DNA from: an uncultured Candidatus Saccharibacteria bacterium
Lineage (GTDB): Bacteria > Patescibacteriota > Minisyncoccia > Phycocordibacterales > UBA9973
Assembly (NCBI GenBank): GCA_964468315.1
Contig: CAYXTA010000004.1
Span: 10,976-74,975 of the forward strand
Reading direction: 5' to 3'
Length of the DNA: 64,000 nucleotides
This document shows positions 12,971 to 63,825 of this stretch, in pieces. The notes under the pieces were generated by a model. That model searched no databases and was not told the DNA's origin. It worked only from the letters and a program-made list of their open reading frames with translations. Position 1 is the stretch's first letter. Every line of letters begins with the position of its first letter. The position numbers and the translations under genes were made by a program.

Positions 12971-12990
12971 TCAATAATATCTTTTAGATA

Positions 12991-13149: not shown

Positions 13150-13188
13150 ATAATTATTTTAAGTTAAATTAATAAAGAAAACTTTTAT

Positions 13189-13338: not shown

Positions 13339-13352
13339 ATTTTTATATTAAA

Positions 13353-14087: not shown

Positions 14088-14099
14088 TACTGAAATTGA

Positions 14100-15056: not shown

Positions 15057-15066
15057 AAAATTTTAA

Positions 15067-46257: not shown

Positions 46258-46331
46258 AAAATATATATTAGCACAAAAATGACAAAATCCCTCATGTCGA
46301 AACCTAAGGGATTTTGTGTTTAAGAGACTAT

Positions 46332-46409
46332 CTCTTTTTTGACTTCTTTGCGGCTTTCTTAGCCACTTTCTTCTTTGCTACTTTCTTTGCTTTCTTTTTT
46401 GCTGCCATT
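46332..46409 (-). CDS. Possible 25-aa Lys-rich micro-protein (MAAKKKAKKVAKKKVAKKAAKKSKKR).
   Basis: ATG to TAG ORF found by manual translation. Below the ORF-track cutoff. Confidence 0.2.
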
Positions 46410-46724
46410 TTATTATTCGCTTGCGCGATGTTAAAATTTTTAAACAAGTTTTGCAATAATAGCGACCTAAGAAAAATTTTTAAAAATAAATTTCAAAAAA
46501 AATTTCTTAAAAATAATTATTGCAAAGAACTAATATAATTATCGCTCATAAAAAATATTATGACAATACTTTTTTCACAAAACTGTGGATAACTTTTTTA
46601 TTTTTTGAAAAAATATTTTTAAAATTTTTTTTATTTTATTTTTTTGTAAAAAAAATATTTGTATTATGAAAATAATTTTTTATTTTTGTAAAAAATAAAA
46701 AAGGCAAAAAAAAATTGCTTTCAT

Positions 46725-46866
46725 TTGAAGCGGGTCATGGCGAACCTCCAACATATGTGCCTATGTGAGTGCGATGACCCGCTACAGATAAAAGCAATTC
46801 GTAACGTGAGTAGATTATAGCATAAAAATTTGCAACAAAAAAATCCCGCCGAAGCGAGATTTTTTG
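46725..46866 (+). ncRNA. Candidate small structured RNA (identity unknown) ending in a bidirectional intrinsic terminator.
   Basis: 9-bp stem gcgggtcat...atgacccgc. Long-range complementarity cctatgtgagtg/cactcacgg. Terminator atcccgccgaagcgagat followed by a T-run. AT-rich promoter-like repeats upstream. Confidence 0.3.
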
Positions 46867-46961: not shown

Positions 46962-46967
46962 ATATAT

Positions 46968-47304
46968 AGGTGTTAGGTAGTTGAGTTCACTTTTAGTGGA
47001 TTAGGAAAGTCCGAACACATACCAGTTTAGTCTGGAAAAGTAATGGGTAATACCCATATGTAGTAATACATAGGTGCGAACAGAGACGTCTTGATTTGAA
47101 AATTTCAAGATATCCTAAAGCAATTTAGGATAAGCTTTTATAGTAATATAGAAGTTGAAACGGCTAAATCCTTACTCGTGTGCAAGATCGTGTCCTGAGC
47201 GAAAGCGAAGGAAGAATCGCTTGAGCTTTAGAGTAATTTAAAGCCTAGATAAATAACTATCATTCCGCAAGGAAAACAAAATTCGGCTTATAGACACCTA
47301 AAAC
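46968..47304 (+). ncRNA. rnpB: RNase P RNA (bacterial type A).
   Basis: CR-I GGAAAGTCCGAACAC. CR-V ACAAAATTCGGCTTATAGACACC. 5'/3' P1 complementarity (gtgttaggt / acctaaaac). Dedicated promoter and terminator. Confidence 0.8.
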
Positions 47305-47312
47305 AAAATGAG

Positions 47313-47409: not shown

Positions 47410-49509
47410 TTATTGTTTTAAAAGTTTAACTATGTTGGTATGTTCTCCATCTGTAATAGATAAAAAATACGTACCAGGAATAAAACCTTCATTTTTTAAT
47501 TCAAAATCTCCATCAACTGAAAACTTTTTAATTTCACGCCCTCTTATATCAGATAGAGAAACTTTCCAATTTGCAGGTTTAAGTTTTAGAGGAAGAACAT
47601 CGTAAAATGTATTACTTGTCACAACCTTACCATTACTTGAACCAAATGATATTTCTTTAATTCCAATTGTAAAAATAATTTGGAAAGTGAAACTGCATTC
47701 ATTTGGATCATCCGGTACTATTGTGAAAAATAATCCTTCTACAAGATTCACATCGGTTGGAAGATTATCTAAAACAATTTGTGAACTACTTTGAGTAGTA
47801 GGAACATATGTATAGCTACCAATACGAACAGTGCAATGTGGAAAACCTTGTCCATTTAAAACAAATTGTCCTCCACCATTTCCACTCGTATACCAATAAT
47901 CAATACCCGCAGGTGATGGTAAAACATTTACAACAACATTATCTTGTGAACTACAAATATTTCCTGAATTTAAAACATAGGAAAGAGTTATAGGTCCGTT
48001 ACCTCCAGCTTGATCGGGATTGAAAATCGCTTCAGAATAACCAGGATAATTTACCAAAAAATTCACACCATTACCAATGAAAGTTCCTCCAGCAGGAGTA
48101 CCAGTCAAAATAACAGGGTTGTTTGAATTATGACAAATGTTGTAAATGTTTGAACTAAGCGAAACAGATCCTTGTGCACCATTAACAGTGATAGAAGTAC
48201 TAGCTGAGCTTGTACAAATTCCATTTGTAGAATATACACTATAAAATGAACTAGGATTTCCTGTCGTAGGAATAGCAGTTACCGTTGAACCAGTAGTAGA
48301 AGTTAATCCATCACCAACCCAAGTATAATTACCATTTCCCCCACTCACACTAAGAGTTATCGAACTTCCTACACAAGCTGTAGCTGGCGCAACTAAGTTT
48401 AAAACTGAGCTTTGCAATACATTAATTGTCATAGAAACGCTTGAAGAATTACAAGCAGTATTTAATGGTGTAGCGGTATAAGTTCCTGTTCCTGTTGGAG
48501 TCAATGTTATTGATGTTCCAGTTCCAAGAATAGTTCCATTACCATCTTTCCAAGTACAATTTACGCCATTTGTTTCACTCAAAGTCACAGAAGATCCGCT
48601 GCAAATGTTTTGATTACTTGCAGAGATATTAAGTGTTGTTGAATTTGTTACATATACAGTTACTGTTTTTGAACCACTTCCGCAAGAGCTTGATGGATCA
48701 GTCAAAGTATAAGTAGTAGTAACAGATGGGCTAGCAAAAGGATTTGCAATGTTAGGATTGTTAAGTCCTGTTGAAGGTGTCCATTGATATGAATTACCTC
48801 CACTTGCTTGAAATTGCACATTACCACCAGAACAAATAGAATAGCTTGCATTTGATACAGATAATGATGATGAAGAATTTACAGTAACAGTTACAGAAGC
48901 AGTATTACTCGTGCAATTACCATTTGTTTCAACAGCATCAAAAGTAGTAGTACTTGTAGGGTAAACAGTAACAGATGAACCGTATCCAACGATATTTCCG
49001 TTTCCATCTCTCCAAGTAATTGTTCCACCATTTCCATTTGCACTCAGTACCACACTACCACCAGAACAAATACTTGTCGTACTTGCAGAAGCAGTAATGT
49101 TTAATGATAAGCATGTAGTTGTTGCAAAAGTTTCATCTTCAAACCAAGAAATCCATTGTCCGTTATACCAAACATCAATATGTACGAGAATTCGTATATA
49201 ATCATTTGGATTTAAACCACCAACATGATAAATAGAATTACCATTAATTGCATTGTTCCCAAAATAAGTTAAAGTAGCTGGTGAAGTAGTTGTAACAGGA
49301 ACATTACCACTTACATAATAAGCGGAAAAAGTAACGTTTACAGAATCAGCTTGTGGAAAATTCCATATAGCTTTAGCATCTACACTATTTGAACCGATAA
49401 AAATCGGGCTAATTGTAACCCCTTGAGCATTCGCATTCTTGTTTGCAAAGAAAACCATAAAGGCAACCATGCAGATAGTCGTTGTTAATTTTGTGATTGT
49501 TTTTTTCAT
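47410..49509 (-). CDS. Secreted Ser/Thr-rich surface protein with repeated Cys-containing Ig/PKD-like modules and a C-terminal sorting-like beta-sandwich domain.
   Basis: Signal peptide ..ANKNANAQG. Recurring CSGGSV/CSGSSVTLS motifs. C-terminus KVSLSDIRGREIKKFSVDGDFELKNEGFIPGTYFLSITDGEHTNIVKLLKQ. Confidence 0.55.
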   Translation of the reverse strand: MKKTITKLTTTICMVAFMVFFANKNANAQGVTISPIFIGSNSVDAKAIWNFPQADSVNVTFSAYYVSGNVPVTTTSPATLTYFGNNAINGNSIYHVGGLNPNDYIRILVHIDVWYNGQWISWFEDETFATTTCLSLNITASASTTSICSGGSVVLSANGNGGTITWRDGNGNIVGYGSSVTVYPTSTTTFDAVETNGNCTSNTASVTVTVNSSSSLSVSNASYSICSGGNVQFQASGGNSYQWTPSTGLNNPNIANPFASPSVTTTYTLTDPSSSCGSGSKTVTVYVTNSTTLNISASNQNICSGSSVTLSETNGVNCTWKDGNGTILGTGTSITLTPTGTGTYTATPLNTACNSSSVSMTINVLQSSVLNLVAPATACVGSSITLSVSGGNGNYTWVGDGLTSTTGSTVTAIPTTGNPSSFYSVYSTNGICTSSASTSITVNGAQGSVSLSSNIYNICHNSNNPVILTGTPAGGTFIGNGVNFLVNYPGYSEAIFNPDQAGGNGPITLSYVLNSGNICSSQDNVVVNVLPSPAGIDYWYTSGNGGGQFVLNGQGFPHCTVRIGSYTYVPTTQSSSQIVLDNLPTDVNLVEGLFFTIVPDDPNECSFTFQIIFTIGIKEISFGSSNGKVVTSNTFYDVLPLKLKPANWKVSLSDIRGREIKKFSVDGDFELKNEGFIPGTYFLSITDGEHTNIVKLLKQ

Positions 49510-49730
49510 CCTGTTTTTGGTTTTAGAAATTATTTATATTTATTTATATACTTTTGTTTCTGAAGCCAGACAAATTGAAAAATCAATCGTCGGCAACAGC
49601 ATACTAAGCACCAAGATTGATGCCTAAAATGCTGTTGCCGACACTAAAAAATGAAGATTTTCAAAGAACTTAAGCTGAAATGAGTTTAGCATACAATATA
49701 TATAAAGTCAAGGTGTATTTTATATAGCTA

Positions 49731-49759
49731 TTGACTTTTAAATATGCTTATGCTAAGAT
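49731..49759 (+). promoter_or_regulatory. Promoter-like TTGACT-N17-TAAGAT.
   Basis: ttgacttttaaatatgcttatgctaagat, 68 nt upstream of ATG 49827. Confidence 0.4.
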
Positions 49760-49826
49760 ATTGATATTACAAAATAGGTCAAATTTGTTGGAAAATCATT
49801 ATAAAATAATTAATTTATAAAAATAT

Positions 49827-52037
49827 ATGAAAAATATTATAAAAAGTTTAACGGTCGGTTCGATATTATTAGCATTTTTTGCCATGAATGCTTTTTCTGC
49901 TATGGCAAACTACTCCGTCGGTGGAGTTATGGCTTCAACACTAGCAGCAACTGGAGTTACTAATACTTCAATGACTCTTCGTGGGAACTATTCTGCAACA
50001 GGCCAAGGTATAATCAATACTTGGTTTGAATATGGTACAAGTAACGATTTAGTTACAAATGGTGGTGGACAATCAATTGGTAATTCTTCACAAGGAAATA
50101 CTTCTGGTACTTTCACATACACTATAAACAATTTAAATCCAGGTACTGCATATTTCTTCAGATCAGTAACTGCACAAAACGGACAAATTGCTCGTGGAAA
50201 TGTACTTTGGACAACAACAAAAGATATAAACACAAATCCAACAAACTATGCACCTACTTTAAACTCTATTAGTACAACAAGTGGTTACCAAGGAGAGACT
50301 TACAATGTTACTCTTTATGGTACAAACTTCATAAGTGGAACAAACGTAAACTTTGGTTCAGGTATCACTGTAAATTCAGTAAACATAATCAACTCTACAC
50401 AAATATCTGCAAATATAGTTATTTCTTCATCTGCATATACAGGCTCAAGAGGTGTTACTGTAAACAATGCAAATGGTACTTCAAATGGAATAAACTTTAC
50501 TGTAAATCAATACAACAATGGTGGTGGTAATTGTAATTCAAACAATCCAACTATATACTCTATTTCTCCAGATTACGTATCAAATACAAATAGTAATATA
50601 AACGTTGTTATACGTGGTTATAACTTCACAACAAGTTCAACTGCAATGTGGAGAGGTTCATCAAGACCAACATACTTCAATTCTAGTACTCAACTTACTA
50701 TGACACTTTATGCAAGTGATTTAGTAAATAATTCAAGTGGTTCTGTTTCAGTTACAAATAACAATAATTGTAATACTTCAAACGGTATGACTCTTAGAAT
50801 AGATAATGTTGACCCTTGTTATAATTACAATAACAACAATGGTTGTGGAGTTTGTGGAGGAGGCTGTAATAATTACCAAGCCCCTACTGTAACAACTCTT
50901 TCTTCAAATGTTTATGGTTCATCTATAACATTAAACGGATCAGTAAATACAAATAATAGCCAAGCTACAGTTTGGTTCCGTTATGGAACATCTAGTTATT
51001 CTATGGGTAACGAAACAACTCACACATACCAAAGTTCTAATACTTGGGGTACAAATTTCTCTGCGACAATAAACGCAACACCAAATGCAACTTATTATTA
51101 CCAAGCTGTTGCAAACAATGCATACGGTACTGTATACGGAAATGTCATGACTACAGTAATGAATAATTACAATTACCCTACTGTTACTACAGTAGTAGCT
51201 ACAAACAAAACAACAACAAGTGCAAGATTAAATGGTGTCGCATCAGGTTTCGCTACACAAGGATACTTTGAATACGGTGAAACTGCTTCATTAGGAAATG
51301 TTACTCCTTCAAAATATATTGGTGTAGGAAATGATGTTTACAGTGTGAACTATTCAGATACTGTATATAATTTACAAGCAGGAACAACATATTATTTCAG
51401 AGCTGTTGCATCAAATGCAAATGGTACTTCAAGAGGAAATATCTTTCTATTACAAACACCAAGTATATATGTACCAGTAGATACTACTACTCCAGCTTCA
51501 ACCGTTACTACAAGTAATGACTTAATAAAGATCACTTCAAGTTCTGATGGTCTTTACCTTGGAGACAATGTTGAATACACAGTAACTTACAAAAACAATA
51601 CAAGACAAAATTTTGAAAACACTATCATAACAGTACAACTTCCAAAAGAAGTAATCTTTGATGAATCAACTTTCGGAAGAATCAATAATGACAATGCTGT
51701 TGTGTTTAGTATTGGTAATCTTGCAAAAACACAAACTGGATCAATGACAATACGTGGTCATTTAAACAAAGAAAGTACAAATTCAACTTCACTTATAACT
51801 ACCGCAATAATGACTTACAATGTCGCTGGTTCTAATGTAGAAAAAAATGAAATAGCTTTCGTAACTAATCATATATTGAATGGAAATAGTTTAGCAGCCG
51901 CATCTTTATTTGGAGCTGGATTTATGCCAACAACACTTATCGGATGGGTAGTATTATTACTTATAATACTTGCACTTATTGCTCTTATAAGACACTTATA
52001 CCTTGGTTATAACAATAACCCAAGACCACTCGTATAA
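49827..52037 (+). CDS. Large surface protein: signal peptide, three ~95-aa FN3-like 'FEYGT' repeats, Cys/Asn-rich region, DUF11-like conserved repeat domain, C-terminal TM anchor.
   Basis: Repeats TWFEYGTS..PGTAYFFRSV, VWFRYGTS..ATYYYQAV, GYFEYGET..GTTYYFRAV. DNVEYTVTYKNN (DUF11-like). C-terminal LIGWVVLLLIILALIALI. Confidence 0.55.
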   Translation: MKNIIKSLTVGSILLAFFAMNAFSAMANYSVGGVMASTLAATGVTNTSMTLRGNYSATGQGIINTWFEYGTSNDLVTNGGGQSIGNSSQGNTSGTFTYTINNLNPGTAYFFRSVTAQNGQIARGNVLWTTTKDINTNPTNYAPTLNSISTTSGYQGETYNVTLYGTNFISGTNVNFGSGITVNSVNIINSTQISANIVISSSAYTGSRGVTVNNANGTSNGINFTVNQYNNGGGNCNSNNPTIYSISPDYVSNTNSNINVVIRGYNFTTSSTAMWRGSSRPTYFNSSTQLTMTLYASDLVNNSSGSVSVTNNNNCNTSNGMTLRIDNVDPCYNYNNNNGCGVCGGGCNNYQAPTVTTLSSNVYGSSITLNGSVNTNNSQATVWFRYGTSSYSMGNETTHTYQSSNTWGTNFSATINATPNATYYYQAVANNAYGTVYGNVMTTVMNNYNYPTVTTVVATNKTTTSARLNGVASGFATQGYFEYGETASLGNVTPSKYIGVGNDVYSVNYSDTVYNLQAGTTYYFRAVASNANGTSRGNIFLLQTPSIYVPVDTTTPASTVTTSNDLIKITSSSDGLYLGDNVEYTVTYKNNTRQNFENTIITVQLPKEVIFDESTFGRINNDNAVVFSIGNLAKTQTGSMTIRGHLNKESTNSTSLITTAIMTYNVAGSNVEKNEIAFVTNHILNGNSLAAASLFGAGFMPTTLIGWVVLLLIILALIALIRHLYLGYNNNPRPLV

Positions 52038-52040
52038 TAT

Positions 52041-52080
52041 AAAAAAATAAAACCCCCTCAATTGAGGGGGTTTTATTTTG
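52041..52080. terminator. Bidirectional rho-independent terminator.
   Basis: Hairpin aaccccctcaattgagggggtt flanked by A- and T-runs. Between convergent genes. Confidence 0.8.
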
Positions 52081-52081
52081 T

Positions 52082-52525
52082 CTAAAATTTAATTTTATCT
52101 CCTATTTTCAAATTATTCTTATCAGAAAATCCTGAATTCACTTCTAGTACATATTGCGCATCTACCTGTCCACCAAAAGTTGCTGGATATGAGTTAGTTT
52201 GAGCATTTTTTTCTATGTAAACAATCTTATAATCTTCTGATATCCAAATAATATCTATAGGGAAAAGCATGTCTTTCATCCAAAAAGGATATTTACCTGT
52301 TTTATAAAAAACAAAAAGCATTCCTTGGTTATCTTTTAAAGGTGTATGACCAGAAAGTCCTAATTCCCTTTTTGCATTCGTATCTGCTATCTCTATATTA
52401 ATTATTTTACCTCCTATCTCTACCTTAGGTTGATTGTATTTTGGTTCTAAAACATGAGGTTTAATTGTAAGCCAAGCAAAAATTACCAAAACAACTATAA
52501 CAATAATGAAGTAAGATTTTTTCAT
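52082..52525 (-). CDS. DUF192-domain protein (COG1430-like) with an N-terminal TM anchor.
   Basis: GLSGHTPLKDNQGMLFVF...PFWMKDMLFPIDIIWI pattern. Confidence 0.6.
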   Translation of the reverse strand: MKKSYFIIVIVVLVIFAWLTIKPHVLEPKYNQPKVEIGGKIINIEIADTNAKRELGLSGHTPLKDNQGMLFVFYKTGKYPFWMKDMLFPIDIIWISEDYKIVYIEKNAQTNSYPATFGGQVDAQYVLEVNSGFSDKNNLKIGDKIKF

Positions 52526-52540
52526 ACCTTAATTATATCA

Positions 52541-52579
52541 AAAATACAAAATAAAAAGAGCGGATTTATCCGCTCTTTA
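52541..52579 (-). terminator. Rho-independent terminator for the minus-strand gene ending at 52599.
   Basis: Hairpin aaagagcggatttatccgctcttt with a T-run on the minus strand. Confidence 0.65.
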
Positions 52580-52598
52580 ATGAAAACTACTAATCTTA

Positions 52599-53213
52599 CT
52601 ATTTAGCCAAAAAAACTTTAGAATTTCTTGTGTCACCATTTAAAAGAGGAAAACTTAAATGGTCAACACCTAAAGTTTCAAAACAAGTATCTTGTGGAAG
52701 ATGAATAGTACTCCCTAAAAAACGATCAATTTTTAAAGAAGAACCTCTGTTGTTCATGCTCTGCAACCACAATATTGGACAAGTGATACGCCTAAAAGTT
52801 ATGTCTTTAATTTCTCCATCAAATATGATTACAGGGTTTGCAAAAAAAGAATCAATAAAACTTACAATTACTCCTTTAAATGAACTAAGACGAATTGAAA
52901 ATAATCTTTCAGGTCTTATTCTAAAATCAGGTTCAATAAATTGGCAATTTTTAAAGGTAATACCACTGAAATTACAACTTCCTAAAAACAGGGATCCAAT
53001 AATAATGCATTGATTAAAACACAAGACTGTACCTTTAATACTTCGTAAACTTTTTTCTTTTTTTTCGTCATTTATTTCAGAAAAATCAAAAATCTTGTTA
53101 AAGATTTCAATATGTCCCGGCTCGTCAATTTCAACATTTTGAAGGTGTGTCTTTTTAGGATCAGATAAAAAATCAATAAAATCTGACACGGTAATCATTG
53201 TTAATGTTTCCAT
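52599..53213 (-). CDS. Hypothetical protein (204 aa).
   Basis: ORF only; Cys/Phe-rich central region. Confidence 0.4.
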   Translation of the reverse strand: METLTMITVSDFIDFLSDPKKTHLQNVEIDEPGHIEIFNKIFDFSEINDEKKEKSLRSIKGTVLCFNQCIIIGSLFLGSCNFSGITFKNCQFIEPDFRIRPERLFSIRLSSFKGVIVSFIDSFFANPVIIFDGEIKDITFRRITCPILWLQSMNNRGSSLKIDRFLGSTIHLPQDTCFETLGVDHLSFPLLNGDTRNSKVFLAK

Positions 53214-53297
53214 AATATTTAGGTTTTAGTTAAAGAATAGTTTTCTTTAACTTACCATTTATTTATACTTTTTGTCAATCTTAAAAAGTTTTACTGA

Positions 53298-53335
53298 GAA
53301 ATCAAAAAACACCCATTTATGGATGTTTTTTGTGT
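53298..53335. terminator. Intrinsic terminator ~230 nt downstream of the 16S 3' end (minus sense).
   Basis: Hairpin aacacccatttatggatgtt with flanking T/A runs. Confidence 0.55.
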
Positions 53336-53559
53336 GTGCTGTTCTTTGTTTTGTTTCGTTCTACTAATTTTATTATTTTATTTGTCTTTCCAAACTGTCA
53401 TCTTGTTTTATAGATACAAGTAAACTCCATCTTTTTTAGCTTGTGATGTTCAAGCATTGTGTGCTCAATTGAGGCACACAACACCGACTCAATAAGTCCG
53501 GTCGGAACGGGTCCGACGCTCATCTTCTGATAAATCAGAAGATGGGACGTTTTTCAAAT

Positions 53560-55088
53560 TGAATTATTCCACGACCAGCTTCCGCTAGCCGTGCCTTGTT
53601 ACGACTTAGTCCCTGTCACCGAGCTTACCTTAGGCCATCCTTATGGACAGACTTTGGGTACTCCCGGCTCCCTTGACTTGACGGGCGGTGAGTACAAGAC
53701 TTGAGAACGTATTCACCGCAGTATAGCTGACCTGCGATTACTAGCAATTCCGGCTTCATGGGGTCGAGTTGCAGCCCCCAATCCGAACTGGCGCCTTCTT
53801 TATTACGATTAGCTCAGGGTTACCCCGTCGCGACGCGTTGTAAAGGCGATTGTATTATGTGTGTGGCCCCGGATATCAGAGGGTCATGCTGACCTGGCGT
53901 TATCCTCGCCTTCCTCCCCCCATTATTCTCACGAAATCGGCACGGAAATTTCCGCACTTTTTTCACGAAGATAATGGGGGGCAGTCTCGCCTGACACTTG
54001 TAACAGACAACGAGGGTTGCGTTCGTTACCCCACTTAAGGGAACAATTCAAACCACGAACTGACGACGGCCATGCAACACCTGCCTAACTGCCCGTGAAG
54101 GCTACTAAGGTTTCCCAAAGTATTCAGCTAGGTTTCAAACCCGGGTAAGGTTTTTCGTTTACCATCGAATTGAACCACATAATCCACTGCTTGTGCAAGT
54201 CCCCGTCTATTCCTTTGAGTTTTAACCTTGCGGTCGTACTACCCAGGCGCTTCTCTTAACGCGTTAGCTTCGCCTCTCAGAGGGTCGATACTCCGAAAAG
54301 CTAGTGAAGATCGTTTAGGGCGTGGACTACTGGGGTATCTAATCCCATTCGCTACCCACGCTTTCGTGTTTGAGTGTCAGGAATACGCTAGTGCACTGCC
54401 TTCGCTTTTGGTGTTCCTCATGATATCAACGGATTTCACCCCTACTCCATGAGTTCCATGCACCCCTCGTATCCTCAAGTTTAGCCGTTTCCTCCGCATG
54501 CCCCCGGTTAAGCCGAAGAATTTAACAGAAGACTAACTAAACCACCTACACACCCTTTACGCCCAGTAATTCCGGATAACGCTTGAGGCCTCTGTATTAC
54601 CGCTACTGCTGGCACAGAGTTTGTAGCCTCTTATTCGTGGGGTACTATCAATAAACTTTCTCCCCCATAAAAGAATTTTACGTGCCGAAGCACTTCATCA
54701 TTCACGCGGCGTCGCTCGATCAGACTTTCGTCCATTGTCGAATATTCTCGGCTGCAGCCACCCGTAGGTGTATGGACCGTGTCTCAGTTCCATCGGTGGG
54801 GGTCAGGCTCTCACCTCCCCTAGACGTCATTGCCTTGGTAGGCTTTTACCCTACCAACTAGCTGATATCCCGCAGACCATTCCCCAAGCAATAAATTTTT
54901 ACCGTTCACCTATTTATCAGTGAGGGACCATCGGGTGTTAGCTCCGCTTTCGCGGAATTATTCCCGACTTGGGGGTATGTTATCTACGTGTTACTACCTC
55001 GTTCGCCATGGGTCTAAACCCATTCGACTTGCATGCCTTATCCACGCCGCCAGCGTTCATCCTGAGCTAGGATCAAACTCTAAAATAA
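53560..55088 (-). rRNA. rrs: 16S rRNA gene, stand-alone; no 23S, 5S or tRNA downstream. The 3' tail lacks CCUCC, helix h40 is expanded, and the 530 loop is divergent.
   Basis: 5' AGAGTTTGATCCTAGCTCAGGATGAACGCTGGCGGCGTG (rc of 55030-55082). 3' AAGTCGTAACAAGG plus helix 45 with a GGAA loop (rc of 53570-53600). Internal conserved blocks throughout. Confidence 0.9.
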
Positions 55089-55741
55089 AATCCTTGCTAA
55101 TAACTTTCGTTATTAATTTAGACTGAACGGAACAAAACAAAAGGCAGAACGGAATGTTCGAACTTTTATTTTGCACGTTGCTTATTTTTCTGTTTGTCCT
55201 GCTCGCACTCACAAAATTATTACAATTATTTCGTGAGTGGAAATTACTTAATTTAGAATATTTGGAAACTTGCTTGCATCATCGCAGCAACTTGAAAAGA
55301 AGCCGCGATGTGCAATCTCATATTTCACTTGAATTTTCAAAGTACCGCTCTGTTTTTTAATCAGAGTGTTACCCAGTATATAGATATATAAAAAGGAGTC
55401 AAGCTATGGCTATACAGGGCCATTTTTAGTGCTGCGTGGCTCTCAGGTGCCTATTTTGACCTTATTTTAAGCCATATTTTAACCTTTCTTAATAACTCCT
55501 TGGGGACTGGCTTGGCACACTGTGCGCAGACAGTAATAAACGGACAACAGATTTGTTCCCCTTCATTGCTGTATGCGTTCTTTTTTTGTTCCTCGTGCTG
55601 GTTTTACAAAAGGAGGTGCCGGGGTTTTATAGGGATTTTGTGATGGAAATTTTGTCGTTTTTTGTTTTCTCGTTTTTGTTGTTTTCTAATCGTTTCGAAA
55701 AATGAAAACATGTACCAAATCGAAAAGAAAAGGAGTTTCAC

Positions 55742-56281
55742 ATGTCTCGAGTAATTTCTCGGTCAACAGTTCTCGCATCAGTCGTCGGGTGCCTCGCTCT
55801 CGCCGCCACCACAGCCACAGCCTTCGTTGCCGTTGGATGGCATGGCCTGTCGCAAAGTGAACGCGACAGTAGAATCTTGTCCCGTGCCAGAAGTTATTCT
55901 TCCGGCACGTACACAGGGATGTCATGCAAAGAATGGGTTCGAAGAGTTGTAAGGGATGCATCTGGAAATGTTGTTACAATTCCCGCAACAAGTTCCAACG
56001 ACTACCAGTGGGAAAGCAGCGCTGATGTATATGGATACGCAGCAACGCAGTGTCCGCCACGCGGAATCGATTCTGGCCGAATCATTCAAATGATTTGGAC
56101 AAACCAAAGCAACGGGCGCACAAACCCACACACTGCAATCATTACAAGCATCACCAGCACTGGGATGAATTGGATTGATTGCAACTGGAACGGTGACCAG
56201 CGAGTTCAGCGGCACTTCGTAAGTTTCTCTGACTTCAATACTCGCGTTCGAAACAACTACACTGTTTATAAAATTCGATAG
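55742..56281 (+). CDS. Secreted CHAP/NlpC-like putative peptidoglycan amidase/peptidase. Canonical AAGGAG SD 7 nt upstream.
   Basis: Signal peptide. Cys (GMSCKEWV) and downstream His (NPHTAII) arranged as in a CHAP domain. ~50% GC. Confidence 0.45.
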   Translation: MSRVISRSTVLASVVGCLALAATTATAFVAVGWHGLSQSERDSRILSRARSYSSGTYTGMSCKEWVRRVVRDASGNVVTIPATSSNDYQWESSADVYGYAATQCPPRGIDSGRIIQMIWTNQSNGRTNPHTAIITSITSTGMNWIDCNWNGDQRVQRHFVSFSDFNTRVRNNYTVYKIR

Positions 56282-56360
56282 CACTTTTCTTGAAGGGATT
56301 CCACTCCGTGGAGTCCCTTTAGTATTTACTTATTACGTGTTTACATAGTCTTATAAAATA

Positions 56361-56882
56361 ATGAACCCGAAAAAAATTTCAATCATCGTTGTTATCTTTG
56401 CAATATTCCTCATCCTTCCATTTTTCCTGCACGACAAAAAAGAAGACAATAAAGAAAACAGTCAGAAACCAAATATTGAGACTGAAAAAATTAAAACCAC
56501 CATCAACAATAACTGGAAAGAATTTTCTGATCAGACGAAACATATATCCTTTTTGGTGCCGGATTATTTATTTCCTTTTTTCGAGGATGACCGGGTGAAT
56601 TTCCGAGAATACAAGGAGGGTCCGGGTTTTATTGATATCCACTTACAAGCATCGCAAGACCCTGATGTAGAAAAGGCAGTCGAAAAGTTAAATTACGTAC
56701 TTGGGGAAATTACCGATAGAAGAATGATTGATGGAGCCCAGTCTCTTATTGTTCCTCTAGCAGGCGAGGGTTCCGCTGGTCAAAAAACCTTGTATACAGT
56801 TAGTGAGGGTATCCTCTACACCATAAACACTCGTTTTATTGACGAAGAAAAATTCTGGAACAGTATTAAATTTTTAAACTAG
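56361..56882 (+). CDS. Hypothetical membrane-anchored protein.
   Basis: N-terminal TM ISIIVVIFAIFLILPFFL. Confidence 0.4.
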   Translation: MNPKKISIIVVIFAIFLILPFFLHDKKEDNKENSQKPNIETEKIKTTINNNWKEFSDQTKHISFLVPDYLFPFFEDDRVNFREYKEGPGFIDIHLQASQDPDVEKAVEKLNYVLGEITDRRMIDGAQSLIVPLAGEGSAGQKTLYTVSEGILYTINTRFIDEEKFWNSIKFLN

Positions 56883-56887
56883 AGCCC

Positions 56888-57793
56888 CTACCCCCTCTTA
56901 AATTTTTCAAACACAACGAGCAGTGGTGATGCGATAAAGATAGAAGAATACGTTCCAACGATGACACCGATGGTCAAAAGTAGCGCAAAATGTTCTGTTG
57001 ATTTTCCGCCAAGGAAGTAGAGCGCAACGAGCACGATCACGAGTGTAAGTGAGGTGTTGATTGAGCGACCCATTGTTTGGGTAAGGCTTCGGCCAACAAC
57101 TTGGTCGAACGGTTCTTTTCGGTTGTTTGTTTCGTGGTTGATCTGAAGATTTTCACGAACACGATCGAACACCACGATGGTGTCATGCACGGAGTACCCA
57201 AGAATCGCCAAAAGTGCGGTCATAAAAAGTAAGTCGAGTTCTGCCCCGATGTATGTGGTGAGAAAAATAAACACACCAGCAGAAATGAGCACGTCATGAA
57301 CGAGTGCGATGATTGTTGCCAAACCATATTTCCAAGACTGAACAGGACGCGAAACTTTTCGGAACGCAAACGTGACGAAAAGCACGATTCCCAAAATAGT
57401 GACAGCGATCGCCACGTAGGCTTTGTTGCGAAGTTCACTTCCAACTGTCGGACCGATTGTGTTGAAGCGATCTTCGTTGAGTTTTAACTGGCCGTTTCCC
57501 GAAAGCGCAGAAACGACTTTATTTTTAACATCGTTGTCAATTTCTTTTGTTCGAAGGGTGTAGCTTTTATCACCTGATGGGCGCAGAGAATATGCACCGA
57601 GTGAAAGTGTGTCGAGTTTTACTTTTGTCGCTTCAAAATCTGGACGAGCGGTTTCGTATGTAACTTCCAAAATCGAACCGCCAGTAAAGTCGATGCCGAA
57701 GTTAAAACCTCGAACAACCATCGAGCCAATCGAGAAGATCACCAAGATCGCGGTGAGAATGAAAAATATTTTTCTGTGTCGGACGATAAACAT
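56888..57793 (-). CDS. secF: Protein translocase subunit SecF.
   Basis: Six-TM SecF architecture, adjacent to secD. Confidence 0.9.
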   Translation of the reverse strand: MFIVRHRKIFFILTAILVIFSIGSMVVRGFNFGIDFTGGSILEVTYETARPDFEATKVKLDTLSLGAYSLRPSGDKSYTLRTKEIDNDVKNKVVSALSGNGQLKLNEDRFNTIGPTVGSELRNKAYVAIAVTILGIVLFVTFAFRKVSRPVQSWKYGLATIIALVHDVLISAGVFIFLTTYIGAELDLLFMTALLAILGYSVHDTIVVFDRVRENLQINHETNNRKEPFDQVVGRSLTQTMGRSINTSLTLVIVLVALYFLGGKSTEHFALLLTIGVIVGTYSSIFIASPLLVVFEKFKRG

Positions 57794-57797
57794 GGTT

Positions 57798-59135
57798 TTA
57801 TTTTTGATTAGGGTCAGACTGACGGGTGTTTCTAATACCTGAACCGAACAAGAAGTGACTCAGTTTTGACTCGCGTTTCAAGCCGATCGCATACAAAAAT
57901 GTTCGAGACACGGTGATTGCGGTAAACATACTGACAAGCACTCCGATACCGAGCGTAAAGGCAAAGCCCTTAACTGCAGACGTACCGATCCAGTACAACA
58001 CAACAGCAGTGATAAGAGTCGAAATGTTTGAGTCGCGAATTGAAAGCCATGCGCGATGGAAACCTTCGTGCATTGCATCGTCGAGCTTTCGGCCACGTGC
58101 GAGCTCTTCTTTTGTTCGTTCGAAAATCAAAATGTTTGCGTCCACAGCCATACCGATCGACAAAATGAAGCCGGCAATACCTGCCGCTGTGAGCGTCACT
58201 GGAATCAGTTTAAAAATAGCGAGTGAAATAATGACATAGATAACCAACGCGACCGAAGCCACAACGCCCGGCAAGCGGTACCAAAGGATGAGGAACAAAA
58301 CGACCGCGAGGAAACCCCAGATACCAGCGACCACACCCGCATTAAGCGCAGACACACCGAGGTACGCACCAACAACCTGTGTTCCCACGAGTTCGATCGG
58401 CACTGGAAGTGCACCGTAATTTAAATTATCAACAAGGGCTTTTGCCTCCTGAGGTGTGAAGTTGCCGCTGATCTGTGCCTTTCCGCCGGTGATTTCTTCG
58501 CGTACAACCGGAGCGGAAATGACTTCTCCGTCAAGGAAAATTGCCACCGGCTGACCGATATTTTCGCGGGTAATTTTTGCGAAAAGCTTGCTGCCCTCTT
58601 CGTTAAAAGTCAGCGCGACTGACGCTTCACTTGTATTTGGATTAAATTCAACAACGCTGTGTTCGAGCAAACGGCCGGTCAAACCTGTTGCTGTAAAGGC
58701 AACAGTTGAAGACGCAGTCGGAGTCGCCTTTACTTCCGAAACCAATTTGAATTCAAGGACCGGAGTTTTTCCGATAAGTTCGATTGCTTTGTCGATGTCG
58801 GTGACACCAGGAAGCTCAACAATGAGACGGTGGTCAGCTCGGCCCGCAAGCGCATTGGCTTTTTCAACCTGGATGATCGGCTCAGAAACACCGTAAATGT
58901 TTACACGACGTTCAATAACGTTTTGGAGCACCTCCATTGAATTGTCGATTTCTGACGCGTCGAGCTCAGAAACGTCTGCCTTGTAGACAAGCTCGGTGCC
59001 GCCGTTTAAGTCGAGACCCAACACAAACGGAAAACGGCCAAACCATGAGTCGGGTTTTGCCTGTGAAAGATAGAGACCGTATCCGAGCAGTGCGAAGACA
59101 ATAATCAGAACGAGGGTAAAAATCCGGTTTTTCAT
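57798..59135 (-). CDS. secD: Protein translocase subunit SecD.
   Basis: N-terminal TM, periplasmic domain, C-terminal 5-TM SecD/F core (LGLDLNGGTELVY). Confidence 0.9.
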   Translation of the reverse strand: MKNRIFTLVLIIVFALLGYGLYLSQAKPDSWFGRFPFVLGLDLNGGTELVYKADVSELDASEIDNSMEVLQNVIERRVNIYGVSEPIIQVEKANALAGRADHRLIVELPGVTDIDKAIELIGKTPVLEFKLVSEVKATPTASSTVAFTATGLTGRLLEHSVVEFNPNTSEASVALTFNEEGSKLFAKITRENIGQPVAIFLDGEVISAPVVREEITGGKAQISGNFTPQEAKALVDNLNYGALPVPIELVGTQVVGAYLGVSALNAGVVAGIWGFLAVVLFLILWYRLPGVVASVALVIYVIISLAIFKLIPVTLTAAGIAGFILSIGMAVDANILIFERTKEELARGRKLDDAMHEGFHRAWLSIRDSNISTLITAVVLYWIGTSAVKGFAFTLGIGVLVSMFTAITVSRTFLYAIGLKRESKLSHFLFGSGIRNTRQSDPNQK

Positions 59136-59173
59136 TTGAAGCCAAATTATAGGCGTTTGATAAGAAAAAGCAA

Positions 59174-60079
59174 CTATCTTTTTTCGAGTGAAACAAGCTC
59201 GGCAATTCCCTCTTCGAGCGTTACTTTTGGCTCCCAGCCGAGGATTTTTCGAGCTTTTGAGTTATCTGCAAGGGTATGTTTTGGTTCGAGGCGTTCTGGA
59301 ATATGCTCAACCGCGCCACCAATCAGCTCCGCTACTTTTTTAATGGTGTAATTATTTCCCGCGCCAATATTAAACACTTCGCCATTCGTGACGCCAGCCG
59401 CTTCAGCCGCCAACATATTTGCTCGGACAACATCGTGCACACTCGTAAAGTCGCGAGTTTGTTCCCCGTCCCCCGTTATGGTCAGTGCGCCACCTTCTCT
59501 TTTTTGTTTTAAAAATTTAGCAATCACAAGCGCATATGCACCCTTTTCGCTCTGACCTGGACCGTACACGTTGAAGTACCGAAGTGAAACGGTGGGCAAA
59601 CCATACACCTCGCTCCAGACTCGGCACATGAGCTCGCCCACATGTTTCTGCAAACCGTACGGACTTTTTGGGTTTGCAGGTAGGTCTTCGCGAAGTGGCA
59701 TGGTTTTCTGGTCGCCGTACGCAGAACTTGAAGCGGAATACACAACTCGTTTAACCTTAGCCTTTTCAGAAGCAATAAGGACATTTAAGGTTCCCGTCAC
59801 GTTTACGCTGTGTGTTTCTTCTGGAAATTCGATCGAAAACTGCACGCGAGGCAATGCCGCCAAGTGAAACACGTATTGTGCACCAGCAAAAACCGGAATG
59901 ATGGATTCGAGGTTTCGAATATCGAGTTCGTGTAACGTCGCACCAGCGTCAACTACTTCCCGACTTCCACCTGCAAGGTTGTCGATTACGTGCACATCGA
60001 AATCTTTTTTCACGAGTTCACGCACAAGGTTCGAACCAATAAATCCCGCTCCACCTGTCACCACAACTTTTGTTTTCAT
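59174..60079 (-). CDS. NAD-dependent epimerase/dehydratase (UDP-sugar 4-epimerase, GalE/WbpP-like).
   Basis: VVVTGGAGFIGSNL Rossmann motif and YxxxK (YSASSSAYG). Confidence 0.85.
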   Translation of the reverse strand: MKTKVVVTGGAGFIGSNLVRELVKKDFDVHVIDNLAGGSREVVDAGATLHELDIRNLESIIPVFAGAQYVFHLAALPRVQFSIEFPEETHSVNVTGTLNVLIASEKAKVKRVVYSASSSAYGDQKTMPLREDLPANPKSPYGLQKHVGELMCRVWSEVYGLPTVSLRYFNVYGPGQSEKGAYALVIAKFLKQKREGGALTITGDGEQTRDFTSVHDVVRANMLAAEAAGVTNGEVFNIGAGNNYTIKKVAELIGGAVEHIPERLEPKHTLADNSKARKILGWEPKVTLEEGIAELVSLEKR

Positions 60080-60103
60080 GTGTTTGTTTTAATACTTTAA
60101 ACC

Positions 60104-61459
60104 CTAAATTCCATTGCTCGATAATAATGTTTTAATCGTCTTGAGTGCGATTTTCAGATCAAGCATCAGCGAACTGTTTTTCAAATAATAGAGGTCGTAA
60201 GAAAGTTTCAGCTTTGTTTTGTCGACGTCCATCATCGCTTTTGGCGGTTGGCGCTGGTACAACTGCGCCCAGCCAGAAAGGCCCGGTTTCATCAAATGTC
60301 GAATGTTGTAATACGGAATTTCTTTTTCATATTCTGCCGCAAGAGCTGGGAGCTCGGCGCGCGGACCAATCAGCGAAAGGTCTCCACGGAAGACATTCCA
60401 CAATTGAGGCAGTTCGTCGAGACGTAACTTTCGCAAATACGCACCGACTTTTGTAATTTTATTTTGCTTTGCAATTTCGCGAGAATATTCACCTTGGTCG
60501 TTGGTTGTCATGCTGCGGAATTTATATACACGGACCAATTTATTATTTTTTCCAATACGATCCTGAACGATAAAAATCGGGCCACCGTCTTCCATTTTTA
60601 TTGCCGCAATCACAAACGGATAAAAAACCAGCGATGCAATGCCGACACAAAACGAAACCACGATATCCATGAGTCGTTTCAGGAAGTCATACGTGTTATT
60701 CGAAGAAACTGAAATATTTTCGATGAACCAATTGTGATTCACGAGCGACATGGGAACACGGTCAAACGTCTCTTCGTAAATCGTGTTCATGTCGACAAAT
60801 CGAACTTTTGAAAAAATGAGGTTATACAAATGCGGCAACAATGGCTGAACCTTTTTATCTTTAAAATCTGCAGCAACAATGTGAACATGGTTACTTACAA
60901 TTCTCCGCGCAATGTCCTCGCAAAAACTCGCATCTTCAATATTATCCGTGTCGACAGACGTCACAAAATACAGACCATACCGAGGATTATTATTTACTTC
61001 GTCCATAAGCTCCTGCGCCTCTTCATCATTACCAATCAAAATAGCTTTTTCCGACTCGTGTGAAGACAACAAAGAAACGCCACGAATGCGCCAGAGCAAA
61101 ATAAGTCCAAACGAAATCACAACGTACACAAAAAGATTCGTTTTCGGTGTAATGCCAAAAAACGGAATGAGGTAGAAAAAGATAACGGCAATTGCGCTAT
61201 TGACCAGCTGCGCATTTAAAATAATCGTTGGAATGCGACTTTTTAAAAGAAGTGTGTGTTTTTCATACAAACCAGCGATAAAAAATACAATGAACCACAG
61301 GACAAAAATAATGGAAAAAGACCAGACGTGACTCAAAAAAATATCTGTGTCCGGTATACCTCGAAAACGCACCAAAAGCATGAGCCACAAGGAGAAAAAG
61401 AAAACGATAACGTCCCCTACAAATAACATCAGGGCTTCGTTTTTATTCATAACTGCCAT
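60104..61459 (-). CDS. Polyprenyl-phosphate sugar phosphotransferase (WbaP/WcaJ-like bacterial sugar transferase).
   Basis: N-terminal TM helices. C-terminal sugar-transferase domain ..PGLSGWAQL. Confidence 0.85.
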   Translation of the reverse strand: MAVMNKNEALMLFVGDVIVFFFSLWLMLLVRFRGIPDTDIFLSHVWSFSIIFVLWFIVFFIAGLYEKHTLLLKSRIPTIILNAQLVNSAIAVIFFYLIPFFGITPKTNLFVYVVISFGLILLWRIRGVSLLSSHESEKAILIGNDEEAQELMDEVNNNPRYGLYFVTSVDTDNIEDASFCEDIARRIVSNHVHIVAADFKDKKVQPLLPHLYNLIFSKVRFVDMNTIYEETFDRVPMSLVNHNWFIENISVSSNNTYDFLKRLMDIVVSFCVGIASLVFYPFVIAAIKMEDGGPIFIVQDRIGKNNKLVRVYKFRSMTTNDQGEYSREIAKQNKITKVGAYLRKLRLDELPQLWNVFRGDLSLIGPRAELPALAAEYEKEIPYYNIRHLMKPGLSGWAQLYQRQPPKAMMDVDKTKLKLSYDLYYLKNSSLMLDLKIALKTIKTLLSSNGI

Positions 61460-61554
61460 AGAAGTAAGACTATATTATACATAACAACCACCTGTAGCAA
61501 GTCGCCGCGATACAACGCACGACACACTACCAAACACCGCCGACGTGTTACTAT

Positions 61555-62706
61555 ATGAACAATTCAACAGCTATGGATAATACCGTTTCGAAGAAAAAGA
61601 TCCTTTTTGCGATTACAAAAGGAAGCTGGGGTGGAGCACAAAAGTATGTCTTTGATCTTGCAACAAACCTTCCAAAAGACCGGTTCGACGTTGTCGTACT
61701 CTGTGGTGAAGGTGAACAACTCGAAGCAAAATTAGCTGAAAAAAATATCCGGGTCATTCGACTTGGTTCGCTCCAAAGAAACATGAGCCTGGGTAAGGAC
61801 CTCGATTCTTTTTTTTCAGTCTGGAAAATAGTAGCCGACGAAAAGCCAGACATCCTGCATTTAAATAGCTCAAAAATCGGGGGTATCGGCGCACTTGCTG
61901 GTCGCCTCGCCGGTGTACCCCAGATTATTTTCACAGGTCACGGCTGGGCATGGAACGAAAACCGCAGTCCGATTTCTAAATCCCTCATCACCCTCGCCCA
62001 CTGGGCAACTATTTTGCTCGCTCACACCACGATCGCCGTTTCTGAAAAAATCAAACAACAAATTCGAAATCTGCCTTTTATTTCTACGTCAAAAGTTGCC
62101 GTGATCCACAACGGCATCGACCACATTGAATTTCTCGAGCGCTTCACTGCCCGCTCCGGGGTCAACGGAACCATCAGCGAAAAATTTTGGGTTGGAACTA
62201 TCGGCGAACTTCACACAAACAAAGGCCTCGACACCCTTATCACTGCTTTTGCTGAAGTGTCGAAATCTCATGTCGACACAGCACTTCTCATTATCGGCGA
62301 GGGCGAAGAACGCGCGCACCTCACAGCCCTGATTCAGAAAATGGGCATGCAGAAAAAAATCCACCTGTTGGGATTTAAAGAAAATGCGGCCAGTCTTTTA
62401 AAAGCGTTCGATGTTTTTGTACTTCCTTCACGCACCGAGGCGTTTCCATATGTCCTCTTGGAAGCCGGCTTGGCACAGTTGCCCGTAGTTGCGACCCGTG
62501 TTGGTGGTATTCCGGAAGTGGTTGTTGAAGGAAAAAATGGACTTTTGGTCAGCCCGAATGAATCATTTGCCCTTTCCCGTGCCATAGACCAGATCCTCGA
62601 AGACAGCACAAAAGCTGCCATGTTTGGGCACAATCTACGTAAAACTGTCGAGGAACGATTCTCGATTGAACACATGGTTGAAAAAACAATTGCCATATAT
62701 AATTAA
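61555..62706 (+). CDS. Glycosyltransferase family 4.
   Basis: EAFPYVLLEAGLAQLPVVATRVGGIPEVV (the EX7E motif region). Confidence 0.85.
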   Translation: MNNSTAMDNTVSKKKILFAITKGSWGGAQKYVFDLATNLPKDRFDVVVLCGEGEQLEAKLAEKNIRVIRLGSLQRNMSLGKDLDSFFSVWKIVADEKPDILHLNSSKIGGIGALAGRLAGVPQIIFTGHGWAWNENRSPISKSLITLAHWATILLAHTTIAVSEKIKQQIRNLPFISTSKVAVIHNGIDHIEFLERFTARSGVNGTISEKFWVGTIGELHTNKGLDTLITAFAEVSKSHVDTALLIIGEGEERAHLTALIQKMGMQKKIHLLGFKENAASLLKAFDVFVLPSRTEAFPYVLLEAGLAQLPVVATRVGGIPEVVVEGKNGLLVSPNESFALSRAIDQILEDSTKAAMFGHNLRKTVEERFSIEHMVEKTIAIYN

Positions 62707-62710
62707 ACAT

Positions 62711-63571
62711 ATGAATAAATTTAAACATGGTTTCACATTGATCGAACTCCTCGTGATCATTTCTATTCTTGGCCTCATTTCAAGCGTTGCACTCGCAAAC
62801 CTCCAAGACGCAAAAGAAAAAGCAAAAGTCGCTGCCGGTGAACAATTCCATGCGACCATCTACCACAGCCAGGGCGACCACACTGTCGGCATCTGGGAGT
62901 TTGACGAAGGAAACGGCTCGGTCGCTTCAGACAGTTCAGGTAATGGACTCGAAGGGGTTATTAACGGCGCAACGTTTGTATCAGGATTGAATGGCACTGC
63001 CCTCTCTTTTGACGGAAACGACTACATAGCACCACCCGAGGGCGGAGAAATTTTTCCAAACCCAGGTAACAACGGCCAAATGACCGTCATCACCTGGATC
63101 AAGCCGGCGAATGCCGCAACACCCAACACCCTCTTCACTGTTGCCGGTCCAAACTGTACCGCTATAAAAGTAGGAATCTCCGGCGGATCAATGCATGTCC
63201 AACAAGCAGGTGATGTTGAAGTCGGCGCGGTGTCAGAAGACGAACCCACAAACCCAGGCCCTGGAGTGGACGAGCAAATTTCAGAAGATCACGTCTTGGA
63301 AAACAACGCGTGGCAGAATGTCGCATACGTTTTCAATAACGGCACAGTACAGAGTTTCGTAAACGGCACGCTGTTCGGTTCGACCGATGGGGTTGGAACA
63401 ACTGACTGTGAAGAAGCCACATGGATCATTGGCGCTGATGCAACGTTTGGTTCTGGATACCAAGGTCTAATGGACAGTCTACGTGTCTACGGAACGACAC
63501 TCACCGCTTCTGAGATCCAGAATATTTATGCTGAAGGACGAACCGAACGATCCACACTTGTCAGCCGCTAA
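62711..63571 (+). CDS. Type IV pilin-like protein: prepilin N-terminal cleavage/methylation motif plus LamG/concanavalin-like domain. Start trimmed to ATG at 62711.
   Basis: MNKFKHGFTLIELLVIISILGL (G|FTLIE class III signal). Laminin-G-like region WIKPANAATPNTLFTVAG... Confidence 0.7.
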   Translation: MNKFKHGFTLIELLVIISILGLISSVALANLQDAKEKAKVAAGEQFHATIYHSQGDHTVGIWEFDEGNGSVASDSSGNGLEGVINGATFVSGLNGTALSFDGNDYIAPPEGGEIFPNPGNNGQMTVITWIKPANAATPNTLFTVAGPNCTAIKVGISGGSMHVQQAGDVEVGAVSEDEPTNPGPGVDEQISEDHVLENNAWQNVAYVFNNGTVQSFVNGTLFGSTDGVGTTDCEEATWIIGADATFGSGYQGLMDSLRVYGTTLTASEIQNIYAEGRTERSTLVSR

Positions 63572-63604
63572 ACTAATTGCTAATAATTAATAAAACCAAA
63601 CACA

Positions 63605-63805
63605 ATGAGTGACGAAGTAAAATTTGAAGAAGAGGAAATACTAGTTGACCGTGCATCGCAGATTTCTCGTGGGTCAGCACTCACCAACCTCCTTTTGCGC
63701 TCAGGCATCGCAAAAAACGAATCGCAGGCAACCTATATTTTGATCGCTATTATGGTTGCGGCCCTCCTTGCAACTCTCTACGTTGTTTCTCAGTATTTGC
63801 TTTAG
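63605..63805 (+). CDS. Small membrane protein (66 aa).
   Basis: C-terminal TM YILIAIMVAALLATLYVV. Confidence 0.3.
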   Translation: MSDEVKFEEEEILVDRASQISRGSALTNLLLRSGIAKNESQATYILIAIMVAALLATLYVVSQYLL

Positions 63806-63825
63806 GCTGGACCTCAAAATATCTA

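Follow-up and report, generated by a model that had tools for sequence, protein, structure and literature searches.

Why does a solitary 16S rRNA gene stand at a sharp change in base composition? The question is raised by a 64-kb window, the whole stretch of DNA analysed here, taken from contig CAYXTA010000004.1 of an uncultured Candidatus Saccharibacteria bacterium. A full-length 16S rRNA gene occupies 53557–55088 on the minus strand (Rfam RF00177, 1356 bits, model positions 1–1533), and an earlier note on this DNA had offered two readings of its setting: a chimera formed at the rRNA gene, or a compositionally foreign block carrying core genes. Comparisons of the flanks and of the 16S gene with independent contigs support the former, and nothing supports the latter. 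Judged from these comparisons, the window is very probably an inter-genome assembly chimera, in which an assembler would have misjoined two co-occurring Paceibacteria through an identical stretch of about 75 nt at the 16S 3′ tail. The contributors of the left and right sides are denoted as parent A and parent B, respectively.

The 16S gene stands alone, as had been claimed. An Rfam scan of the whole 64-kb window detected no 23S or 5S rRNA gene and ARAGORN detected no tRNA, so that no linked rRNA or tRNA gene accompanies it; the only other Rfam match is a single RNase P RNA (46965–47306). The interval 53214–55741, to which the break had been assigned, is the gap between the start of a 204-aa open reading frame (ORF) at 53213 and that of a CHAP-domain ORF at 55742. 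Downstream of the 16S gene, toward lower coordinates, an AT-rich spacer of 343 nt leads to the 204-aa ORF (52599–53213, minus strand), which has no Pfam match and is indeed a protein gene forming the next minus-strand feature. On the upstream side, a leader of 653 nt (55089–55741, minus strand) separates the 16S gene from the divergently oriented CHAP-like ORF, and a promoter scan placed a sigma-70-like site, TTGACT-16-TATACT, at 55402–55375 within this leader.

The composition break is real in the sequence and abrupt. The GC content is 31.9% over positions 1–53213, 50.1% in the 16S gene, 36.6% in the leader and 45.6% over 55742–64000. The sharp break between an AT-rich left side and a GC-richer right side therefore stands, although the right side is at about 45% rather than the 50% first estimated. 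The GC content at third codon positions (GC3) ranges from 0.075 to 0.309 (mean 0.174) among 40 ORFs on the left and from 0.397 to 0.500 (mean 0.462) among all eight ORFs on the right, and the two ranges are disjoint (Mann–Whitney p = 5e-9). Codon choice shifts from left to right in the manner described, toward GCC/CTC/GGC-type codons, with CTC rising from 0.06 to 0.30 and GGC from 0.07 to 0.31 while ATA falls from 0.42 to 0.06. Tetranucleotide usage, whose comparison had been proposed together with that of codon usage, also switches across the 16S gene: after GC normalisation, both right-hand 4-kb segments lie 4.2–4.3 standard deviations outside the left-hand spread, and the two resemble each other.

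Independent public contigs for each flank were retrieved by exact-protein look-ups. Two of them, L001 (ENA ERZ27298654, 10.8 kb) and L002 (ENA ERZ926032, 7.5 kb), carry separate ENA analysis accessions, are 99.5% identical to each other, and both cross a 16S gene that adjoins an identical 204-aa gene; DNA identical to this gene is also present in L003 and L004. The region 52552–53626, which comprises the spacer, both of its hairpins and the last ~70 nt of the 16S gene, matches L001 and L002 at 99.7% identity, and the longer region 49952–53626 matches at 97.4%. The 16S body (53627–55046), by contrast, is only 78.2% identical, and no similarity to the two contigs remains beyond 55083, three bases inside the 5′ end of the gene. 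The divergence of the 16S gene thus exceeds that of its own non-coding spacer by 20 percentage points, a pattern incompatible with vertical descent; the 16S body is foreign to the AT-rich genome. L001 and L002 are AT-rich (29–37% GC) on both sides of their 16S genes. Their upstream genes, for an EngB-like GTPase, an S24 peptidase, MsrA, MsrB and a P-type ATPase, are all absent from the window.

These data bear on a further explanation, namely that the whole window comes from one genome whose composition is heterogeneous by nature, as it would be if a GC-richer block of highly expressed genes lay next to the rRNA gene. The 16S gene itself has 50% GC, as in all AT-rich genomes. However, the GC3 shift extends to all eight right-hand ORFs, including hypothetical proteins and glycosyltransferases, GC-normalised tetranucleotide usage differs as well, and the change from 100% to 78% identity against L001 and L002 is left unexplained. 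It is because of this identity discontinuity that native heterogeneity is rejected, and its probability is close to nil.

The strain identity of the AT-rich genome relative to L001 and L002 is itself a mosaic. Identities of 99–100% at 49952–51551 and 52552–53626 flank a lower block (51552–52551, 87–94%) that contains a DUF192 gene and the 3′ end of a 736-aa gene, which suggests either strain-level recombination or a hypervariable surface-protein region. The sole contig returned by the exact-SecA look-up, L135 (Logan ERR4405439), begins 355 nt upstream of SecA and is uninformative.

The right flank leads to a different set of relatives. A SecD search identified L010, a 131.8-kb contig (NCBI GCA_001458635.1), and a MurD homologue led to L133 (ENA ERZ27247828). 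The SecD of the window is 77% identical to that of L010 at the amino acid level, and the L010 gene order reproduces the right side of the window, with FtsW, a pilin-like protein, a GT4 glycosyltransferase, a sugar transferase, an epimerase, SecD, SecF, two small ORFs and the 16S gene. The 16S body of the window is 91.6% identical to that of L010, and leader and 16S together are 92.9–96.8% identical to L133. Blocks of the leader and the promoter hexamers align with L010, and also with L133 from 55403 onward; this alignment and the promoter scan define 55089–55741 as the leader and promoter region of parent B. Below ~53550, the identity to L010 drops to ~50%, while that to L001 is 100%, and the identity to L133 collapses likewise. 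At the variable tail positions below 53626, L010 agrees with L133, whereas the window agrees with L001 and L002. Downstream of the L010 16S gene lie genes of 45–54% GC, a tRNA-Ile, MurD, a NUDIX protein and MurC; downstream of the L133 16S gene lies DNA of 45–50% GC with the same tRNA-Ile, followed by MurD and MurC. None of this downstream DNA is similar to the left flank of the window. Each flank is thus found joined to another partner elsewhere, the left flank itself in L001 and L002 and the right-hand type in L010 and L133, which are relatives of parent B and not the identical strain. The exact parent B proteins are on record under NCBI and Logan only. The products of two spurious ORFs inside the 16S gene (54920–55126 and 54228–54452), sought as a route to contigs with the window's 16S body, are not on record, and a 40-mer from the window-specific tip of helix 44 (h44) gave no match in the metagenome contigs of the Joint Genome Institute (JGI).

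Where does one genome pass into the other? The last base that differs from L001 and L002 is 53627, below which the window is 99.7–100% identical to them; the junction therefore lies within 53552–53626 on the minus strand, about 75 nt of the 16S 3′ terminus that comprise the end of h44, h45 and the tail and lead from parent B to parent A. The break is accordingly not at the edges of the interval 53214–55741 but inside the last ~75 nt of the gene. The 16S gene of the window (53557–55088) is a hybrid whose body, 53627–55088, derives from parent B and whose last ~70 nt are identical to parent A. Each flank is also matched, at 100% or 99.97% identity, by Logan contigs from sibling runs. On the left, L003 (ERR4405439) ends at 53581. 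On the right, L005–L009 are 99.7–100% identical to the parent B segment and stop at 55054 or inside the block, the end at 55054 being that of L005 (ERR4405440). Logan assemblies use k=31. The position 55054 is 30 nt into a 37-nt stretch (55083–55047) common to both 16S types, and by the same 30-nt logic the end at 53581 points to a shared stretch reaching down to ~53552. These contig ends form the pattern of a k=31 graph containing two coexisting 16S variants. The parent A copy of the tail is seen directly in L001 and L002; several positions of 53552–53626 are different in L010 and L133, the relatives of parent B. We infer that the tail of parent B itself is identical over the whole 75 nt.

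Direct observation covers the discontinuity in identity between flank and 16S gene, the other neighbours that independent contigs show, and the break in composition and codon usage; we infer that the join itself arose in the assembler rather than in a cell. Two Paceibacteria (Parcubacteria, Patescibacteria), each with a stand-alone 16S gene, would co-occur in the same sample set. Parent A, with an AT-rich, Nomurabacteria-like Paceibacteria genome (segment 1–53551; 31.9% GC, GC3 0.17), would account for the window from position 1 up to ~53.55 kb; the spacer with the terminator hairpin and the extreme 3′ tail of the 16S gene would belong to it as well. Parent B, a second Paceibacteria lineage at ~45% GC (segment 55742–64000; 45.6% GC, GC3 0.46), would account for the body of the 16S gene, its promoter-bearing 650-nt leader and the block that runs from the CHAP-like gene through SecF and SecD to the pilin-like gene. 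Their 16S genes are only ~78% identical overall and would share an exact stretch at the 3′ terminus (53552–53626), through which the assembler would walk from one genome into the other. The contribution of parent B amounts to ~9 kb of the window and at least 10.8 kb in all, since its block runs at least 1.9 kb beyond the window end, with FtsW just past it; that of parent A is at least 53.5 kb. rRNA genes are a classic misjoin point in metagenome assemblies.

Lineage placement of the two sides agrees with this division. The assignment of SecD and SecF to the right side and SecA to the left was confirmed by Pfam. The unusual 16S tail, CGTAACAAGGCACGGNTAGCGGAAGCTGNTCGTGGAATANTTC, matches at least 120 GTDB species representatives. 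Nearly all of those whose titles name a group belong to Paceibacteria/Parcubacteria (Nomura-, Zambryski-, Taylor- and Adlerbacteria, Paceibacterota); some automated assemblies are titled "uncultured Candidatus Saccharibacteria" and others only "bacterium". Both parents are Paceibacteria. In 31 GTDB loci, the 16S gene has SecA on its 3′ side, and in all nine of those with long alignments (9/9) it is closer to the L001 type. SecD/SecF lie on the 5′ side in 10 GTDB loci, whose 16S genes are closest to the L010 type. No GTDB locus combines the two patterns. The SecA of the window is 73–82% identical in amino acid sequence to Nomurabacteria-type GTDB loci with an L001-type 16S gene, while its SecD/F are 47–66% identical to other GTDB loci, with an L010-type 16S gene. 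The comparison of SecA with SecD/SecF that had been suggested as a check thus gives a discordant result, the two sides falling with different GTDB loci.

This placement also addresses the converse explanation, in which the window is correct and L001 and L002 are the chimeras. Both are short-read contigs of MEGAHIT style (with k119 and k127 names) that likewise cross a 16S gene. Against such an origin, the same join recurs under two separate ENA accessions, in contigs that are 99.5% identical to each other and AT-rich on either side of the 16S gene, and their 16S type adjoins SecA in 9/9 GTDB relatives, whereas the 16S type of the window has SecDF upstream and GC-rich MurD downstream in L010 and L133. 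We regard this explanation as extremely unlikely.

Could the junction instead exist in a cell? In such a case, a Nomurabacteria-like strain would have exchanged its 16S gene and everything upstream for a block of at least 10.8 kb (16S, leader, CHAP, SecF, SecD and onward to FtsW) from a different Paceibacteria lineage, with homologous recombination taking place in the conserved 3′ tail of the 16S gene. The crossover lies in sequence that is identical between the two 16S types and could equally have been a substrate for recombination. Strain-level recombination does occur in the population, because the flank, 97.4% identical to L001 and L002, is a mosaic of blocks of 100% and 87–94%. Nevertheless, this event requires the only visible 16S gene to be exchanged for one that is 78% identical, along with the core genes SecDF and FtsW. 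The codon usage of the block shows no amelioration, its boundary carries no integrase, transposase, tRNA or direct-repeat marks, and the closest relatives retain an AT-rich upstream context; the general record of rRNA genes as misjoin points argues in the same direction. A real junction of this kind is very unlikely. Slimmer still is the chance of a biological join in its full form, the replacement of a single 16S gene and at least 10.8 kb of core genes from a lineage with a 78% identical 16S gene by a crossover in a tail lacking the anti-Shine-Dalgarno (anti-SD) motif. If true, it would mean that a ribosome can work with a deeply foreign 16S rRNA. A genomic island was likewise considered and rejected, given the lack of boundary marks and a cargo of core genes (SecD and SecF, with FtsW past the window end). 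No integrase or transposase domains were found by Pfam among the window ORFs scanned. No empty site with resumed synteny was seen, as L001 and L002 diverge at the 16S 5′ end and never rejoin the window; the far end of the right block lies beyond the window.

Several points weigh against the assembly chimera. The misjoin is deduced from independent public assemblies and is not directly observed in reads, and the native 3′ flank of parent B is represented by its relatives L010 and L133, with 16S genes 92–97% identical, rather than by the exact strain. A misjoin across only 75 nt would be less likely if the source assembly were a long-read one. In addition, the GTDB loci are 8-kb chunks, in which both flanks of one 16S gene are seldom visible together.

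The assembly chimera of the window resembles rRNA-gene chimeras in short-read metagenome assemblies and metagenome-assembled genomes (MAGs), in which the junction falls within conserved rRNA sequence that two co-occurring organisms have in common. Like them, it combines an abrupt switch in composition and codon usage with flanks that belong to different lineages, and other assemblies of the same samples break at this place. The mechanism is an ordinary one; what differs is that the presumably shared stretch is short (~75 nt) and located at the extreme 3′ tail, so that almost the whole 16S gene comes from the minor contributor. The gene consequently mislabels the AT-rich genome that supplies at least 53.5 kb, and 16S taxonomy, primer or probe design and 16S–genome links drawn from the contig would be wrong. 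SecD and SecF would likewise be credited to the wrong organism. The presence of one lineage's 16S gene beside another's flanking DNA is also reminiscent of horizontal transfer or mosaicism of 16S genes. To our knowledge, reported 16S transfers involve closely related donors or multi-copy operons, whereas here the identity to the donor is 78% and at least 10.8 kb of core genes come with the 16S gene, and both halves can be seen in their native contexts in relatives. The exact SecA, 204-aa, SecF and SecD proteins all have records under NCBI, and the chimera appears to sit in a contig deposited there, probably as part of a MAG. The earlier observation was correct and correctly interpreted, but what it describes is almost certainly an artefact. 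Its biological meaning is accordingly small: the composition break is a property of no real chromosome, and its relevance is one of data quality. Such a chimera can be diagnosed without reads: a 16S gene and its own spacer are each aligned to independent assemblies, and the two identities are compared.

The unlinked state of the 16S gene is a separate matter, genuine and native to both lineages. In the window, L001, L002, L010 and L133 alike, the 16S gene has no 23S gene within several kb and no tRNA of an internal transcribed spacer (ITS); for L133, the downstream sequence was found to be free of rRNA by BLAST against L010. A gap of more than 1.5 kb to any 23S gene served as the threshold for an unlinked gene. 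The claim of an unlinked rrn operon therefore holds in all four independent contigs. A 23S–5S pair elsewhere in the same genome is visible only in the parent B relative L010. Exclusively unlinked rRNA genes have been described for certain clades, Patescibacteria included (Brewer et al., bioRxiv 10.1101/705046). Relative to that report, L010 adds a 23S gene with a LAGLIDADG ORF and a 5S gene ~11 kb upstream of the 16S gene on the same strand, and a tRNA-Ile(GAU) 2.3 kb downstream. On one strand, L010 carries the 23S gene (containing the LAGLIDADG homing-endonuclease ORF and ending at 1814), two tRNA-like hits, the 5S gene (3142–3250), ten protein genes and the 16S gene (14032–15524). The downstream tRNA-Ile(GAU) of the parent B lineage may be a displaced ITS tRNA. 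The L133 16S gene contains a LAGLIDADG-encoding insertion at the position equivalent to 53687/53688 of the window and a second insertion at the position equivalent to 53939–53962. These features were read from L010 1–3250 and 14032–17859 and from L133 1–3000.

The 3′ tail through which the two genomes would have been joined is unusual in itself. At 53557–53600, the window reads GGAAUAAUUC in place of GGAUCACCUCCUU and lacks the CCUCC anti-SD motif. The same tail (GGAATANTTC) is present in at least 120 GTDB Paceibacteria species representatives. A Shine-Dalgarno-like motif precedes only one of the 48 ORFs, and the missing anti-SD fits its absence upstream of the other 47. The window tail resembles that of the Parcubacteria subgroup without the anti-SD motif described by Tsurumaki et al. 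(2022, PMC9297842), who found this motif in just 48% of Parcubacteria. Both the stand-alone 16S layout and the missing anti-SD tail have thus already been published for Patescibacteria/Parcubacteria and are not new; the tail is relevant to the chimera only because the genomes would have been joined through this conserved element. As an observation apart, a TATAAT-like box is found 6–12 nt before the ATG of many ORFs (for example, at 22519, 25158, 30611, 43371, 52525, 59135 and 61459), an arrangement that suggests widespread leaderless mRNAs.

The spacer downstream of the 16S gene contains two hairpins on the minus strand. The one at 53307–53326, flanked by an A-tract and a U-tract in a terminator-like arrangement, had been described as the intrinsic terminator of the 16S gene. 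Direct folding confirmed the hairpin (−14.8 kcal/mol, z = −4.5 against shuffles), and it is kept at 99–100% identity in L001 and L002; however, it belongs to the 16S spacer of AT-rich parent A and not to the genome that supplied the 16S body. A simple terminator scan of the window did not list this hairpin, and the counts of that scan were not enriched over shuffled sequences. The second, a 12-bp hairpin at 53519–53546, begins 11 nt past the 16S 3′ end in the same parent A spacer, is identical in L001 and L002, and is possibly a processing stem. The first gene downstream of the 16S gene in parent A is that of the 204-aa protein, which is identical and 16S-adjacent in L001 and L002.

The genes of the two segments complete the picture. 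On the left, Pfam identified SecA, DnaE, a split transketolase, GAPDH, TatC, Rpe, RpiB, YchF, Sua5 and a Mur ligase, a typical Parcubacteria repertoire without a duplicate of any right-side gene; the RNase P RNA also lies within this segment. On the right, the order is CHAP-like, a 173-aa protein, SecF, SecD, epimerase, sugar transferase, GT4 and pilin-like. The RNase P RNA (class A, 46965–47306, plus strand) scores 105.9 bits against the Rfam gathering threshold of 100, a marginal value consistent with a reduced or divergent RNase P RNA of the candidate phyla radiation (CPR). Large ORFs of 563, 814, 949, 699 and 736 aa in 7937–17916 and 47410–52037 match Pfam marginally (DUF7743, MG2, DUF11) or not at all, and in the latter four, the GC content at second codon positions is unusually high (0.47–0.55). 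These Pfam-poor ORFs probably encode surface or secreted proteins specific to the lineage of the AT-rich parent.

A candidate small RNA (sRNA) lies near SecA, as a hairpin of ~87 nt at 46714–46800 on the minus strand, with a transcript that probably spans ~46818–46706. It is 85–92% identical in 27 GTDB Paceibacteria loci, while the adjacent SecA is only ~70% identical at the DNA level, and it was seen only in loci where SecA is next to the 16S gene. A −10-like box, most often TGnTATAAT, precedes nearly all of the 25 aligned copies; on the 3′ side, some copies have a U-run and a few others a GC hairpin followed by a U-run. The apical ~45 nt are almost invariant. Covariation marks the basal stem (98.3% of cells paired across 35 pairs, with double changes in 8), a result reached by none of 500 shuffles, and only the minus strand accommodates the G·U pairs. 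With a cut-off of E ≤ 1, Rfam returned only noise for this element. Identification as the RNA of the signal recognition particle (SRP) was rejected on inspection, as neither a GNRA tetraloop nor an AGCA motif is present, and as a tRNA or tmRNA because ARAGORN called none. Between the sRNA candidate and SecA, an unannotated small ORF rich in lysine and alanine (46328–46456, minus strand) bears MAAKKKAKKVAKKKVAKKAAKKSKKR in its C-terminal part.

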